Shown here one piece after another: positions 3,061-8,728 of a DNA stretch of 64,000 bases. The DNA comes from Candidatus Latescibacterota bacterium (GTDB lineage: Bacteria > Latescibacterota > UBA2968 > GCA-2709665): assembly GCA_965237675.1 (NCBI GenBank), contig OZ250150.1:3808001-3872000 (forward strand), read 5' to 3'. The notes below the pieces were generated by a model. It had not been told where the DNA came from, searched no databases, and saw nothing but the letters and a program-made list of their open reading frames with translations. The position numbers and the translations under genes are program-made. How positions within the stretch are numbered: position 1 is the stretch's first letter; each line of letters starts with the position of its first letter.

Positions 3061-3702
3061 CTATCGTTCCGGCGCCACGTCCGAAGGATGGTGTGGCAGG
3101 GTCAATGCCTCCATGAAGATCTGAACCAGATTGTCGATCATTCTTCGATCTTCGGACCGGCCGACGGTCTCGTGGCTGGCGATAAACCTGCTGATACAAT
3201 AGTGGAGCAGTGCCCAGAAAAAGGACCTCAAGGTCAGCTGCACGTCCACCTTTCTGTATCTTCCCTGGACGATACCCTCTTCAATGGCCCGTCGAATGGC
3301 TTTCATACGTGGTGATGTGTAAATGGCGAAGAATTTTTCCCGGAACTTATGGTCTTCGAGTGCGCTGTACATCATCAGACGGATAAACGTCGGATCCTTT
3401 CGATTGCGTTGAATATAGAAGCAGGCGAACTGACGCAGCAGGGTCTCAAGGTCGTCCGTCCGATTTGGGTTGTCTTCCTGTTCCCAAACCTTCAGCCGCC
3501 TGTCAACCGTGAAGTTGATAATGGCGTCATAGAGGTCTTCTTTGGTGGCGAAGTGCCGGAATATGATCGCCTCGGAGACGCCCGCGGCGCTGGCAATCGC
3601 ACGTGTCGTGGCGCCCTTAAAGCCCTTGGAGGCGAAATGGGCGATCGCGACGTTGATGATTTGGCGCCGCCGTTCTTCCTGCGAGAGTCGTTTTCTGGTC
3701 AT
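3061..3702 (-). CDS. TetR/AcrR family transcriptional regulator
   Basis: N-terminal HTH: FASKGFKGATTRAIASAAGVSEAIIFRHFATKEDLY. Confidence 0.93.
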   Translation of the reverse strand: MTRKRLSQEERRRQIINVAIAHFASKGFKGATTRAIASAAGVSEAIIFRHFATKEDLYDAIINFTVDRRLKVWEQEDNPNRTDDLETLLRQFACFYIQRNRKDPTFIRLMMYSALEDHKFREKFFAIYTSPRMKAIRRAIEEGIVQGRYRKVDVQLTLRSFFWALLHYCISRFIASHETVGRSEDRRMIDNLVQIFMEALTLPHHPSDVAPER

Positions 3703-3994
3703 AGTTGAATGGCAAACTCATGCATTTGCAATCAGGGGTTCAACCAGGTAATGTCAGATTTTGGCGACATGTATCGGCATGACACCGGCCTGTAACAACG
3801 CTCGCTCGGTGTCTGGTTGGTCTGAATATCGGTATCGTAGGCACGGATGTCAAGTCCCATGCCCCGGAAAAGGGATGGAGTGCCGTGAGCCAGACGAACA
3901 CACAAGATCGAGAATAGGTACGTACCGTGGATCTTGATAAGGCGTGGCTGCACACTGCCGTTGACGCAACCCACAGGGCATTACACACCCGAAT

Positions 3995-4747
3995 GTGCCG
4001 GCGACCGACCTGGTTTCGGAGAGCGTGCCTATGAGTTTTCTCAAGGCGTGGTGGGACAGCCCGGAGCGTCAGGTGCGGGTCGCCGTGGTAACCGAAATGT
4101 CCAGGGTGCTGGACGGCACCTTCGGGGGCGCGGCGTGGGACCTGCGGCGTACCTGGCCGGATGGCCTTGATGCGCTGATGCGTACCATCCTGTCGCAGAA
4201 TACAACGGATGGCAATCGGGACCGGGCTTACGACAGGATGCGAGCGCGTTTTCCGGAATGGGAGGACGTGCTGGCAGCGGACGAGACGGACCTGAAGGAC
4301 GTCATTCGAGTGGCAGGATTGGCGAATACAAAAGCCCCGAATATGCAGGCGTTTCTACGATGGTTGAAGGGCGAACGCGGGATCTTGAATTTGGATTTCT
4401 TGCGGGATCTGCCGAATCCGGCGGCTGTGGCGCTGCTGACCGCTCATCGGGGTATCGGTATCAAAACGGCCTATATCGTGCTGGCCTTCGCATTTGACCG
4501 GGATCTGTGCGCGGTGGACACGCACGTGTACCGCATTCTTCGCCGGGTGGGGATTGTCTCCGCGCGATGCAGCCGAGAAAAAGCACATACTGAACTTGCG
4601 CCTTTGATTCCAGGGGGTCAGGCCAGGCCCTTTCATATGAACCTGGTTGATTTTGGCAAGACAGTGTGCGTGGCGAGAAATCCTTCCTGTGGGGTCTGTC
4701 CGATTTCCCACCTGTGCAGGTACTATTGTGAAACCCGCAGTGGATAA
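3995..4747 (+). CDS. Endonuclease III-like HhH-GPD DNA glycosylase with 4Fe-4S motif
   Basis: ILSQNTTD, HhH GIGIKTA, AVDTHV, C-terminal CVARNPSCGVCPISHLC. Start uncertain (GTG 3995 or ATG 4031). Confidence 0.88.
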   Translation: MPATDLVSESVPMSFLKAWWDSPERQVRVAVVTEMSRVLDGTFGGAAWDLRRTWPDGLDALMRTILSQNTTDGNRDRAYDRMRARFPEWEDVLAADETDLKDVIRVAGLANTKAPNMQAFLRWLKGERGILNLDFLRDLPNPAAVALLTAHRGIGIKTAYIVLAFAFDRDLCAVDTHVYRILRRVGIVSARCSREKAHTELAPLIPGGQARPFHMNLVDFGKTVCVARNPSCGVCPISHLCRYYCETRSG

Positions 4748-4818: not shown

Positions 4819-5895
4819 TCAGTCGATCCTGATTCGCTGAAGATCGAACGAGTTAACATTGTAGGGTTCGAAGGTGTCTTCGTCGCCGAGCGTAAAGACC
4901 GCGATATACAGGTATTGGTCGTTTTGGTCGATGACGATGCCGCGTTCCCTGAGGTTGCCCGCCGCATGGTAGTAGCGCTTCTCCAGTTTGGTCCGGGTAT
5001 CGAATTCTACGATAAAAACGCCGGCTCTGTCCGCGTCCGTCGGCGCGACGAACAGGCGACTGCCATCGTGGCTCGCGGCAAGCCCTAAAGCCGGAGATTT
5101 GATTTCGTATTTGCCCGTTAGCGTCAGATTGTCGGCGCTGAATGCCCAGAGATCCTTTATGTGGCCTCGGTCCTGAGGATCCGACAGACCCAGGTAGAGC
5201 TGGTCCCTGAGAGGGCTCATAACAAAGTCGTTTATCGTGGCTGAGAAACTGAAACGGGACGAGGTGGTTTCGTTCGTGGGGAAATGACCTGAGGCGTCGT
5301 ATTTCAGGACGTTGTTCCTGGCGGCAACAAAGAGCTTGCGTTCGCCGTGATCCATGAGAAGTGCGCCCGAGCGCACGTTCCCGCCGGTCTCAAGGTTGTC
5401 CACAATGGATACGGCGATCAGCAGGGGTTCGTCGAGGGAGGATACGTAGACAATGGAGTCGGTTCCGCAGGCGACGTGGGATATATTGTTCAGTGAGATG
5501 GGAACTGTTTTCACAATGGCGAACGTACTCAGTTCGATAACTTTCAGGTTCGATTCACCGTTCAACCCCACCACCAGATGGCGCTGATTAGGTGTGATGT
5601 CCAGGTCGACCGGGTGGGAACCCACCTGGAGGTTCCCGTCGATGGCCATCTGCTCGCCAAGGCGGATGCGGAGAATCCGGTTGTTTCCATAGTCGGCCAG
5701 ATAAAGATATGGCTGGTTCGGATCCACGACCATATCCGAGATGTTCACACCGAGTTCCAGGATTTCGAAATCGCTGAATTCATAGAAATGATCCGGCTCG
5801 TCGTCGTCCAGATAAAGCGAGCAGCCCAACACACAAAAGAGCATGCCCACGGCATAGAAAACGAACCGGCCGTGTGTTCTTCCTGTCTGACGCAT
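4819..5895 (-). CDS. YncE/YVTN-like beta-propeller lipoprotein
   Basis: Lipobox VLGC; repeated blades (VGSHPVDLDITPNQRHLVV, GLAASHDGSRLFVA, GIVIDQNDQYLYIA); starts 10 nt after the upstream barrel gene. Confidence 0.75.
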   Translation of the reverse strand: MRQTGRTHGRFVFYAVGMLFCVLGCSLYLDDDEPDHFYEFSDFEILELGVNISDMVVDPNQPYLYLADYGNNRILRIRLGEQMAIDGNLQVGSHPVDLDITPNQRHLVVGLNGESNLKVIELSTFAIVKTVPISLNNISHVACGTDSIVYVSSLDEPLLIAVSIVDNLETGGNVRSGALLMDHGERKLFVAARNNVLKYDASGHFPTNETTSSRFSFSATINDFVMSPLRDQLYLGLSDPQDRGHIKDLWAFSADNLTLTGKYEIKSPALGLAASHDGSRLFVAPTDADRAGVFIVEFDTRTKLEKRYYHAAGNLRERGIVIDQNDQYLYIAVFTLGDEDTFEPYNVNSFDLQRIRID

Positions 5896-5905
5896 GCCGG
5901 ATCGC

Positions 5906-6877
5906 CTAAAGCGAGATGATGTAAGACGTGCTCAGCTCAATCAGATAATCTGACGTCAGCTGACTCTCGTTCACGTCTTGAAACAGGACGATGGGCATAC
6001 GGAATTCTACGCTTAGGTTATCCAGGATGCTGACCCCCAATTCAGGCGAAAGATACAACCACTTCCCTCCCCGTTCTCTTGTAATCTGACCGAACTGGTA
6101 GCGGTCCCGTGAGGTGATCAGATTTTTCAGACTCAGCCCGCCGTAGAACCGTCCTTCGCCAGTGTACTCTGTGGAGAGGGTGGCGTGCAGTTCGTTTCCA
6201 TATTTGTAGCCGTAAATGTTCTGTCTGGTGGTAATGCGCGTGAAGACGCCGCCCGAAACCGTCAGGTTCTCTAGACGATGGAATACGTTGAAAGCGAGGA
6301 TCGGGTCAACGCTGCCCGAACCGATCTGCAGATTGTCCGAGAAACGCTCCCCGTACAGGTCTTTCGCATTTGCCGATCCGTTTGCAAGCTTCAATCCGAT
6401 GCCGAGATTCAGGCCCGGGAAGCCCGCTGAGAGCGGTGCCGCGTAATTCAACATAACGACAATATCGCCCAGCCCGGACGCGTGTCGAATATATTTCCCG
6501 CCCGCATACTGGTTGTGGTTCTGGCCGCGCAACAACACCTTCTCGTTGGCTACTGAACGAAAGGGTAGGGCAAGCGTCAGTCCGATGCGTTCGGTAACGC
6601 CGTGCGAGGCAAATACGGTGGTGGTGGCGTTATCCGTTCGCTCACGATTCACGTTCGGTATAGCCCGGGTACCGTAATGAGGATCGGATAGGAATTCGTA
6701 ATCGTAGTGTACGCTCAGGGTCAGTTGATCCTTTTCGGCCGGATCATTCCTCATCAAGCTCCCGCCCGGGAGCACTGGACGCCGTCAGCTGACGCCGCCC
6801 TGGGCATGGGCGGCGGGCACCATGAATGTTGGCACGACAAGAAACAGGCACATAAAAAAAACTGAAAACGGCCGCAT
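5906..6877 (-). CDS. Outer-membrane beta-barrel 'transporter' (COG4313/Phenol_MetA-like), candidate selenoprotein with in-frame UGA at codon 31
   Basis: GAGGA RBS 8 nt before ATG 6877; signal peptide MRPFSVFFMCLFLVVPTFMVPAAHA, then QGGVS-UGA(6785-6787)-RRPVLPGG in frame with ORF 5906..6775; family motifs SGLGDI, GLKLANG, QIGSGSVD, YKYGN, LYLSPELG; alternating C-terminal strand. Confidence 0.75.
6752..6781 (-). promoter_or_regulatory. Candidate bacterial SECIS hairpin
   Basis: mRNA after UGA: CGG-CGUC-C-AG-U-GCUCCC-GGGC-GGGAGC-UU-GAUG. The 6-bp upper stem starts exactly 11 nt after UGA, has a G-leading tetraloop and a bulged U below it. Confidence 0.7.
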
Positions 6878-6940
6878 GCAGGGGTTCCTCGATCAGTTAA
6901 GGTGTGAATGTGAGGCTTCAGCCTTTATTTCTTGCGTTGA

Positions 6941-7120: not shown

Positions 7121-7194
<74 letters not shown>

Positions 7195-7209
7195 TTATGT
7201 TACAGCAGT

Positions 7210-7287
7210 GGTGGGTGTAGCTCAGATGGTTAGAGCGCCTGGTTGTGGCCCAGGAGGTCGGGGGTTCAAGTCCCCTCACTCACCCCA
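7210..7287 (+). tRNA. tRNA-His (GTG)
   Basis: G-1 plus GTGGGTG/CACTCAC acceptor stem, anticodon TT-GTG-GC, GGTTCAAGTCC, encoded CCA. Confidence 0.95.
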
Positions 7288-7366: not shown

Positions 7367-8728
7367 ATGTTTCCGGTTGAACGTTTTCGAAAAGCGCCCT
7401 CGCGGGCCATGATTATTGGCTTGGATGGAACCCCCTGTAGCCTGATAAAACGCCTTGTTTCCGAGGGCAGGATGCCTAATTTCGCCGCCTTGCTGGGTAA
7501 TGGAACCCTGGCGCGAATGGAGTCGGTCTTGCCTACCGTATCGTCGGTCGCCTGGGCGTCTCTGGTAACCGGGTGTAATCCCGGCAAGCATAATATCTAT
7601 GGTTTCATCGATCGTGTACCGAAGACTCATGAAATGTACATTCCTACGTCCAGAACGATGCGCGCCAGAACCTGGACGGAGATTTTCAGCGATATGGGCA
7701 GGCGTGTCTTTTCGATGGGTGTGCCGACAACTTACCCTCCAAGTGCGGTAAACGGCATTCTTATTTCCGGATTTCTGGCACCGGATCTGAATCGGGGAAC
7801 CTATCCCGCCGGGGTAGCGCGTCAGCTGGCTTCAATGGGGTACCGGATTGACATCGACGCATGGCAGGCCCGTCGGGATCGGGAGCGGTTTCTGGACGAT
7901 GTCTTCCAGGCCATGGAGCGGCGGTTCGACGCCATGTTCCATTATCTGAATCAGGAACCCTGGGACCTGTTTGTTGCCCACGTGATAGAAACGGACCGGC
8001 TTCACCATTTTTTGTGGGGGCTGGTTGAAGACGGCAGCGAGGTGTATCTGCCGTGGTTCCACAGGTTTTATGCTCGGGTGGACCGTGCCATCGGCGAGGT
8101 GGCGGACCGGCTTGACGACGACGTCCTGCTGATGATTATATCAGACCATGGATTCTGCAAGTTGAAGTTTGAGGTGCATCTGAATTACTGGTTGCGCCAG
8201 GCTGGTTTTCTGCGTTTTCTGGGCAGAACGGCCAAAGGGCTTCGCGACCTGGCGCCGGATACACGATGTTATTCGCTCTTGCCCGGGCGTCTATATCTCT
8301 GTTTGCGAGGGCGGGAACGCGGGGGTTGTGTGGAGCCCGGTGCGGAATATGAGGCACTGAGACAGGATATCGCCAACGGGCTGATGGAAATCCGAAATCC
8401 GGTCACGGGTGAACCGGTGATCCAGAGGGTGTTCATGCGCGAGGAACTCTATTCTGGCGATGCTTTTGAATTGGCGCCTGACCTGGTGGCCATGCCGGCG
8501 GAGGGGTACGATTTGAAGGGTGGTTTCGATAAGGAAGAACTGATGGAGCGGGGGCCTGTCAATGGCACTCATACCTTCGCAGATGCGATGTTTTTTATCA
8601 ATTGCAGGGCGGGATTAACACAAGAGATTCGACTGATCGACGTCTTTCCTACGCTCTTCGATGCCGTCGGACTGGATATTCCCGGTGGTGTCGACGGTCG
8701 TTCTGTCGTTACAGGACAACTGAGCTGA
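7367..8728 (+). CDS. Alkaline-phosphatase superfamily nucleotide pyrophosphatase/phosphodiesterase
   Basis: IIGLDG, PTVSSVAWASLVTGCNPGKH, ETDRLHH, ISDHG, C-terminal GTH...DVFPT. Confidence 0.88.
   Translation: MFPVERFRKAPSRAMIIGLDGTPCSLIKRLVSEGRMPNFAALLGNGTLARMESVLPTVSSVAWASLVTGCNPGKHNIYGFIDRVPKTHEMYIPTSRTMRARTWTEIFSDMGRRVFSMGVPTTYPPSAVNGILISGFLAPDLNRGTYPAGVARQLASMGYRIDIDAWQARRDRERFLDDVFQAMERRFDAMFHYLNQEPWDLFVAHVIETDRLHHFLWGLVEDGSEVYLPWFHRFYARVDRAIGEVADRLDDDVLLMIISDHGFCKLKFEVHLNYWLRQAGFLRFLGRTAKGLRDLAPDTRCYSLLPGRLYLCLRGRERGGCVEPGAEYEALRQDIANGLMEIRNPVTGEPVIQRVFMREELYSGDAFELAPDLVAMPAEGYDLKGGFDKEELMERGPVNGTHTFADAMFFINCRAGLTQEIRLIDVFPTLFDAVGLDIPGGVDGRSVVTGQLS

Follow-up and report, generated by a model that had tools for sequence, protein, structure and literature searches.

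We analysed a 64,000-nucleotide stretch of the genome of a Candidatus Latescibacterota bacterium (GenBank assembly GCA_965237675.1, contig OZ250150.1, positions 3,808,001 to 3,872,000), here called the window and numbered from its first letter. Near its start lie two reverse-strand genes, the first encoding an outer-membrane beta-barrel protein and the second a beta-propeller lipoprotein (Table 1). The barrel gene carries an in-frame UGA codon shortly after the signal peptide sequence, followed by a hairpin of the selenocysteine insertion sequence (SECIS) type. The conservation of this arrangement among relatives indicates that the barrel is very probably a true selenoprotein, with a single selenocysteine (Sec) close to its mature N-terminus.

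Table 1. Predicted features of the barrel-propeller locus and its surroundings in the window
Feature	Position	Strand	Remarks
Full barrel gene, UGA read through	5906..6877	-	323 codons plus TAG stop (5908-5906)
Shine-Dalgarno-like GAGGAA	6885..6890	-	7 nt upstream of ATG 6877; assigned from sequence
Signal peptide, residues 1-25, AHA end before Q26	6803..6877	-	Cleavage site predicted from A-x-A pattern
UGA as probable Sec, residue 31 (mature residue 6)	6785..6787	-	Column conservation of TGA
SECIS-type hairpin, 5-6 bp stem, 4-nt loop	6758..6773	-	Conserved pairing, covariation
7-bladed beta-propeller lipoprotein gene, lipobox VLGC, Cys25	4819..5895	-	ATG 5895, 10 nt past barrel stop
tRNA-Arg(TCT) and tRNA-His(GTG)	7121-7287	+	About 240 nt upstream of barrel start codon
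Type I phosphodiesterase-family gene	7367-8728		Past the two tRNAs
Endonuclease III-like gene	3995-4747	+	Downstream of propeller
TetR regulator	3061-3702	-	Downstream of propeller

The barrel gene and its in-frame UGA

In the list of open reading frames (ORFs) made with translation table 11, the barrel begins at a GTG at 6775 and has no signal peptide. The initial annotation of this locus, made from the DNA letters and their translations, proposed that a signal peptide is gained only through read-through of the UGA, and the start codon, the GAGGAA motif and the AHA end of the signal peptide were all located upstream as that proposal has them. The signal peptide is followed by QGGVS, the TGA (6787-6785), RRPVLPGG and then the barrel ORF. 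Upstream of the TGA this frame is open over the last 25 codons in 65/65 distinct relatives, compared with 12/65 and 34/65 for the other two frames, and an ATG with a hydrophobic core is found there in 62/65. This supports the view of the barrel as an outer-membrane protein that depends on the signal peptide encoded upstream. Its sole cysteine, residue 10, lies within the signal peptide, leaving a mature chain free of Cys as first described, and no Cys is found 3' of Sec in 43 of 44 distinct full-length Sec-form relatives.

The read-through protein was used as a query against 41 related genomes. Homologues were found in each of the other 14 genomes of its genus and in both genomes of a second genus, and exactly one in-frame TGA was present in 33 of the 34 matches from these 17 genomes, the exception being a C-terminal fragment. 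Genomes of the genus each have the gene twice, one copy being orthologous (78-86% identity) and the other paralogous (about 52%). The TGA occupies the same column in 30/30 Latescibacterota loci (L026-L055), where a signal peptide of 28-30 residues is followed by A-Q-[GP]-G-V-S-U-R-R-P-V-L-P-G-G. A homologue from another family of the phylum (L098, about 27% identity), found when 168 genomes of the phylum were searched, also has a TGA, in the context A-V-A-U-R-R-P-T-L-P-G-E. A scan of metagenome contigs yielded 57 marine loci (L110-L166), of which 51 include the N-terminus; all 51 have TGA at the Sec column, across a guanine-plus-cytosine content of 29-56%. The family motif around Sec is G-[VI]-S-U-R-R-P-x-L-P-G. 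The codons of the R-R-P that follows the UGA vary (CGN or AGR for Arg, all four CCN for Pro) and the residues do not, which indicates selection at the protein level. In 20 of the marine loci more TGAs are met past the Sec site before the next TAA or TAG; from the counts, with the gene ends uninspected, these look like the gene's own TGA stop.

The TGA was also seen in other sequencing data, as contigs from the runs of three studies, one of them possibly the source of the window itself, are identical to the window at 6785-6787. Arg, Trp or Gly at this column, named in the initial annotation as the mark of an ordinary nonsense mutation, was not found in DNA: all DNA that reaches the column reads TGA, and the Trp seen in protein records was traced to gene calls made with genetic code 4. 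As judged from these comparisons, the TGA is a conserved recoding site and not a mutation.

Protein databases give a distorted picture of the family. Most of the 60 matches in the public protein collection are ORFs of about 280-290 residues that start right after the UGA, and among the clusters called full-length five have W at the Sec column and two have S. The DNA of L111, whose product is 97% identical to P0030, has TGA at the column where P0030 shows W, and the W is therefore an artefact of calling the gene with code 4. Gene calls that show the Sec UGA as Trp in this way, on short AT-rich contigs, are P0027, P0029, P0030, P0031, P0033, P0068 and P0137, and some code-4 calls also appear to read the gene's own TGA stop as Trp. 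All public calls seen for the barrel family are wrong in one of these two ways, either starting after the UGA or reading it as Trp, and the Trp records would mislead any check of the column made by protein alignment alone.

The downstream hairpin and the selenocysteine machinery

The genome encodes the machinery for Sec insertion, which the initial annotation had listed among the points to check. A tRNA-Sec (73 bits) adjoins selB (358 bits) and selA (561 bits), and selD (363 bits) itself contains a TGA. selB is present in 17 of the 18 genomes that have a TGA barrel, the exception being 80% complete; as 128 of 168 genomes across the phylum have selB, its co-occurrence with the barrel is weak evidence.

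The initial annotation described a 6-bp GC stem with a GGGC loop, beginning 11 nt after the UGA and resting on a bulged U and a lower stem. In the window the stem is formed by GCUCCC (6773-6768) and GGGAGC (6763-6758), which enclose the loop GGGC (6767-6764), and it begins exactly 11 nt past the UGA. Conservation of the hairpin was tested on 62 distinct rows of 60 nt, with stem columns 21-26 and 31-36, against 500 shuffles. Stem cells are paired in 94.4% of cases, and neither the observed pairing nor the covariation score was reached by any shuffle (0/500). Sliding the 3' partner by 1-3 columns lowers pairing to 24-69%, and RNAalifold independently gives the same five pairs. The clearest case is pair 24-33, which joins the third positions of a Leu codon (CUY) and of the second Gly codon (GGR) and is CG in 39 sequences, UA in 19, UG in 4 and broken in none; third-position changes in the hairpin are thus compensatory and synonymous. 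In L098 the peptide is altered to P-G-E-A and a 5-bp stem is kept at the same place. The upper stem, its loop and its spacing stand as first described, and stem and spacing are conserved. The lower stem and the bulged U occur in the minimum-energy fold of this sequence, and we rejected them as part of the conserved element because the three pairs involved are present in no more than 28, 18 and 23 of the 62 rows.

Two other genes of this genome served as internal controls. In selD a 5-bp stem starts at base 15 after the TGA and has the loop GGUC, and in fdhA, encoding the alpha subunit of formate dehydrogenase, a 7-bp stem starts at base 14 and has the loop GGUCU; the geometry of the barrel hairpin matches that of both. 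The fdhA gene lies about 47 kb past the end of the window (G000:C1:3919142-3921142, L168) and has one TGA and a hairpin like that of Escherichia coli fdhF. The barrel shares with fdhF-type recoding in E. coli the in-frame UGA, a hairpin that starts 11 nt downstream and has G residues in its apical loop, and a genome with selA, selB, selC and selD, and a near-fdhF-like version of the element is found in this genome's fdhA. It differs in that the barrel stem has only 5-6 bp, the loop is mostly N-G-G-N and the bulged U is not conserved. The loop also forms the junction of Pro and Gly codons, and this double use accounts for the N-G-G-N found in most members. One marine subclade (L157:259, L158:1285) has L-P-V-G in place of L-P-G-G, with the fdhF-type loop GGUC and about four clean stem pairs.

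Channel fold and partner proteins

Pfam family PF13557, with a cut-off of 22 bits, is matched by the window barrel at 25 bits and by L098 at 37.9 bits. The marine protein P0030 and the paralogue L043 fall under the threshold, and no NCBIfam model matches the window barrel. The AlphaFold2 model, built from a 93-row alignment, has a mean predicted local distance difference test score (pLDDT) of 89.2 and a predicted template-modelling score of 0.82. Foldseek places FapF (5o65) first, with E 1.6e-12 and 13-14% identity, and also matches the COG4313 channel Pput2725 (4rl8) with E 5.6e-12, template-modelling scores of 0.64/0.76 and 11-12% identity. The outer-membrane beta-barrel of the initial annotation is borne out by these matches, and on the predicted structure the window barrel is a 12-stranded outer-membrane channel of the COG4313/PF13557 type.

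Channels of this type (Pput2725, TcpY, SphA) share with the window barrel a Pfam score above the gathering threshold and the 12-stranded fold. Like the window barrel, Pput2725 has a short N-terminal segment before strand 1, which occludes its lumen: according to the portion of the report available to us, about 14 N-terminal residues fold into it from the periplasm and leave the channel almost closed (PMC4493636). By homology, Sec at mature residue 6 would be carried on an N-terminal segment of about 25 residues, in or under the lumen on the periplasmic side. The known channels differ in having no Sec, and cysteine is absent from the available part of the text of PMC4493636; they are linked to the uptake of hydrophobic molecules, with no propeller or thioredoxin partner described. 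FapF forms a trimer and has a plug helix and a coiled coil. The resemblance to FapF is one of fold only, as the flanks examined here contain no fap-type genes and the neighbours are instead propeller, thioredoxin and FG-GAP/ASPIC proteins.

A profile search of 1.84 billion representative sequences gave 987 matches at E up to 0.001, nine of them at 1e-30 or better. Among distant full-length homologues that retain the N-terminus (alignment A4), a Cys pair stands just past the signal peptide in 36 of 39 and no such pair is present in three. The pair is CC, CxC or similar and mostly takes the form Q-x-C-C-x-x-G-x-P-x-L-G. The wider family would accordingly be characterised by a chalcogen motif on the same short segment, without a column-exact exchange of Cys and Sec. 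Four distant PF13557-like barrels of the same phylum (L100-L103) have S-C-G-x-x-x-C-P-L-D after the signal peptide together with long His/Asp-rich loops, and look like a metal-binding variant of the family.

The propeller lipoprotein, whose gene begins 10 nt past the barrel stop, had been proposed as the partner of the barrel, and this linkage is maintained among relatives. The propeller gene lies directly downstream of the barrel in 15/15 orthologous loci and in 51/57 marine loci; of the six marine loci that lack it, five are cut off where the contig ends and one belongs to the paralogue type. Window and marine propellers share 28-42% identity, and the lipobox Cys25 is invariant in alignment A5 (34 sequences) and present in at least 95% of 45 distinct sequences. 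The AlphaFold2 model (pLDDT 84.2) was matched by Foldseek to generic seven-bladed propellers (YVTN, YncE, Lp49 and WD40 proteins), with no enzyme-like match. The two genes are probably co-transcribed, and their products may form a physical complex. A propeller Cys was considered as a selenenylsulfide partner for Sec and rejected, because the lipid-modified Cys is the only one conserved and Cys143 is missing in several clades.

A second candidate partner, which adds to the earlier reading, is encoded with the paralogue barrel elsewhere in the genome (cluster G000:C1:3231135-3234946, L167:4135-7946). The paralogue (C1:3233187-3234149) has its own TGA, and upstream of it are genes for an NHL-repeat propeller that bears a candidate lipoprotein signal and for a periplasmic thioredoxin-like protein (G000:C1:3232492-3232992), which carries WCKTC and an N-terminal hydrophobic segment that could serve as signal or anchor. 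A gene for an S-adenosylmethionine-dependent methyltransferase follows the paralogue barrel. The thioredoxin matches Pfam families PF08534, PF00578 and PF13905. Its matches to the NCBIfam models for ResA, StoA, TlpA and DsbE lie below the curated cut-offs (best ResA, 48-55 bits against 170), so its likeness to ResA/TlpA/DsbE holds at the family level only.

A thioredoxin gene stands directly upstream of the barrel in 13/13 paralogue loci (L043-L055), in L042 and in 11/57 marine loci. When the marine thioredoxins are compared with this genome, they match the gene beside the paralogue barrel best (E 1e-24 to 1e-50), and the next hit reaches 1e-6 to 1e-10. Two distant homologues, P0067 and P0069, are fusions of the barrel with a C-terminal thioredoxin (CxxC); their calls start just before the first beta-strand and may have been cut at an upstream UGA. 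In L098 the barrel is followed by a gene for a protein with CarboxypepD_reg and cytochrome c domains (L098:2493-3473, plus strand) and then by one of the Redoxin/AhpC-TSA type (3571-3858, plus strand), with no propeller. Taken together, these arrangements show a conserved linkage of the barrel family to a dedicated ResA/TlpA-like thioredoxin. ResA, TlpA and DsbE reductants with dedicated clients (TlpA with ScoI and CoxB; ResA or CcmG with apocytochrome c) have the WCxxC motif, the signal or anchor and the genomic dedication in common with this protein. The difference lies in the presumed client, which here would be a selenol on an outer-membrane protein, and for this no description was found.

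Other neighbours are less informative. A gene for an FG-GAP/ASPIC-UnbV (CRTAC1-like) protein neighbours the barrel in 35/57 marine loci, and in the loci inspected it lies upstream on the opposite strand, as at L111:2-1450 (minus strand). At L150:1-894 (plus strand) an FG-GAP/ASPIC gene lies on the same strand as the barrel and encodes a type IX secretion sorting domain. None of the neighbouring genes in the window (Table 1) hints at a role for the barrel-propeller pair. Pfam or NCBIfam scans covered 1.5 kb of flank at selected marine loci, a 14-kb region at the paralogue, the locus of L098 and three ORFs beside the window pair, and found no metal-resistance gene.

Possible roles of the selenocysteine

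We propose that SelB would decode the UGA as Sec with the help of the hairpin 11 nt downstream, giving an exported precursor whose synthesis depends on Sec. Removal of the signal peptide would leave a 12-stranded COG4313-type barrel with one selenol on its N-terminal Q-G-G-V-S-U-R-R-P segment. The barrel would act with the beta-propeller lipoprotein and with a dedicated periplasmic ResA/TlpA-like thioredoxin (WCxxC), encoded in this genome beside the paralogue barrel. The selenol would meet its substrate at or in the channel and become oxidised or covalently loaded, after which the thioredoxin would reduce it back. That a thioredoxin travels with the barrel family is what points to redox cycling of the selenol, which we infer to be driven by this protein. 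Since 43 of 44 relatives have no Cys after Sec, any resolving thiol would act in trans, and the two invariant arginines adjacent to Sec would make a chalcogen or oxidant species, anionic or neutral, a likelier substrate than a metal cation. The picture as a whole, a lone selenol on the N-terminal segment of a channel and recycled by thioredoxin, is one that we favour with modest confidence.

Several observations weigh against this picture or against parts of it. The hairpin loop, mostly N-G-G-N, is unlike the GGUC of fdhF-type elements, and positions 6650-6900, scanned against Rfam with an E limit of 10, gave chance-level matches only and no SECIS family. The 61-nt stretch with the hairpin folds no more stably than its shuffles (z -0.15); the case for the hairpin is based on conservation and not on folding energy. 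The relatives compared are kin, and the counts given above overstate their independence. AlphaFold2 confidence is moderate at residues 26-45 (block means 57-76). In the distant homologues the Cys pair falls 2-3 residues before the Sec column in the alignment, and no Cys was found at the column itself, where relatives without Sec, seen as protein records only, have Ser (P0015, P0020), Glu (P0110) or Pro (P0065); Cys homologues at the Sec position are usual for selenoproteins and not obligatory. Finally, a thioredoxin gene is found beside the window-type barrel-propeller pair in 0/15 orthologous loci.

The initial annotation had proposed that the Sec serves as a soft-metal or metalloid ligand in or under the pore. 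On this explanation the selenolate would bind Cu(I), Hg(II), Ag(I) or a similar species and the thioredoxin would only keep it reduced, much as TlpA keeps ScoI and CoxB reduced. The Cys pairs of the distant homologues are a hint in this direction, as are L100-L103 with their Cys motif and His/Asp-rich loops. The two invariant arginines beside Sec disfavour a cation, however, each chain offers one chalcogen ligand with no second ligand conserved (43/44 relatives without Cys), the window subfamily has no His- or Met-rich loops, and the scanned flanks hold no metal-resistance gene. A metal-binding role is on balance unlikely, and of the earlier proposal the siting of Sec at the pore is kept as a prediction while the metal finds these hints and no more direct counterpart in the loci.

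Transport-related selenoproteins are the nearest functional comparison, and most of them are implicated in metal or metalloid resistance according to the available part of a 2026 review (PMC13188914), which speaks for the metal explanation. SaoP/SaoB/SaoX, the MerT-like proteins and the SO_0444 efflux transporter (10.1101/2022.07.06.499078; PMC13188914) resemble the window barrel in carrying Sec in envelope or transport proteins and in having gene calls truncated at the UGA. The same sources present them as inner-membrane or binding proteins with CU, CC or UxC motifs in metal-related contexts. The window barrel, by comparison, has a single Sec in an outer-membrane barrel and no metal genes in the scanned flanks.

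A bolder form of the redox picture is conceivable, in which the barrel family would be an outer-membrane machine, spread across the oceans, that transports its substrate through covalent chemistry of the selenol. Sec and the two arginines would capture selenite, polysulfide or elemental sulfur or selenium as a Se-Se or Se-S adduct, the thioredoxin would release the substrate inward and the propeller would be a cap or receptor. We regard this as quite unlikely to hold in full.

It is very unlikely that the UGA is purely regulatory, with a chemically idle Sec and the UGA and SECIS serving to tie synthesis of the channel to selenium supply. Such a role could explain why relatives without Sec have Ser, Glu or Pro and not Cys, and a site so near the 5' end of the gene would make any block an early abort; against it, G-[VI]-S-U-R-R-P is kept at the protein level although the codons differ, and the dedicated thioredoxin and the thioredoxin fusions indicate chalcogen chemistry. 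That the codon is not read as Sec at all, being a nonsense mutation, an assembly error, a site of read-through by another tRNA or a sign of an altered code, is extremely unlikely: the hairpin is indeed short, but all DNA loci long enough to include the column have TGA there (30 Latescibacterota loci, L098 and 51 marine loci), the contigs of three studies agree at it, the further TGAs of 20 marine loci are taken for TGA stops of the genes themselves, selD and fdhA of the same genome combine a TGA with a hairpin at a similar distance, and a barrel without its signal peptide could not be exported.

The redox-active channel proposed here has no counterpart in the catalogues compared, in line with the initial annotation, which did not recognise the family as a described one. 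No PF13557/COG4313 entry appears in the available parts of the 2022 list of prokaryotic selenoproteins (PMC9312934) or of the 2026 review (PMC13188914), the family is not in NCBIfam, and the accessible portion of BSepDB (PMC13326102) mentions neither the outer membrane nor barrels. Full-text literature searches found no paper joining PF13557/Phenol_MetA_deg with selenocysteine and none combining selenocysteine, SECIS, outer membrane protein and beta-barrel; 'Novel selenoprotein neighborhoods' by Haft and Tolstoy, known through citations only, may bear on novelty. Identity with GOS_A or GOS_B (Zhang and Gladyshev 2008) was considered and set aside, as four family motifs have no occurrence in the four supplementary files available and each of those families has more than 100 Cys homologues; they are probably different. 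The only outer-membrane barrel in the catalogues, as far as the available parts of PMC9312934 and PMC13188914 extend, is the MtrB/PioB-type GSU2204 family. It provides a precedent for Sec in an outer-membrane barrel, and it is unlike the window barrel in being a large MtrB/PioB porin-cytochrome component with CXXCH, a distinction drawn from its description and not from its sequence. The barrel described here represents a real selenoprotein family of an unusual kind, uncatalogued in the sources compared.

With this family the selenoproteome gains a widespread marine and sponge-type member, in a compartment and a fold from which hardly any Sec is known. That an outer-membrane channel should bear a single selenol on its plug, together with a periplasmic reductant of its own, implies that chemistry takes place at the outer membrane rather than passive diffusion; if true, this would be a new mode of action for such channels.

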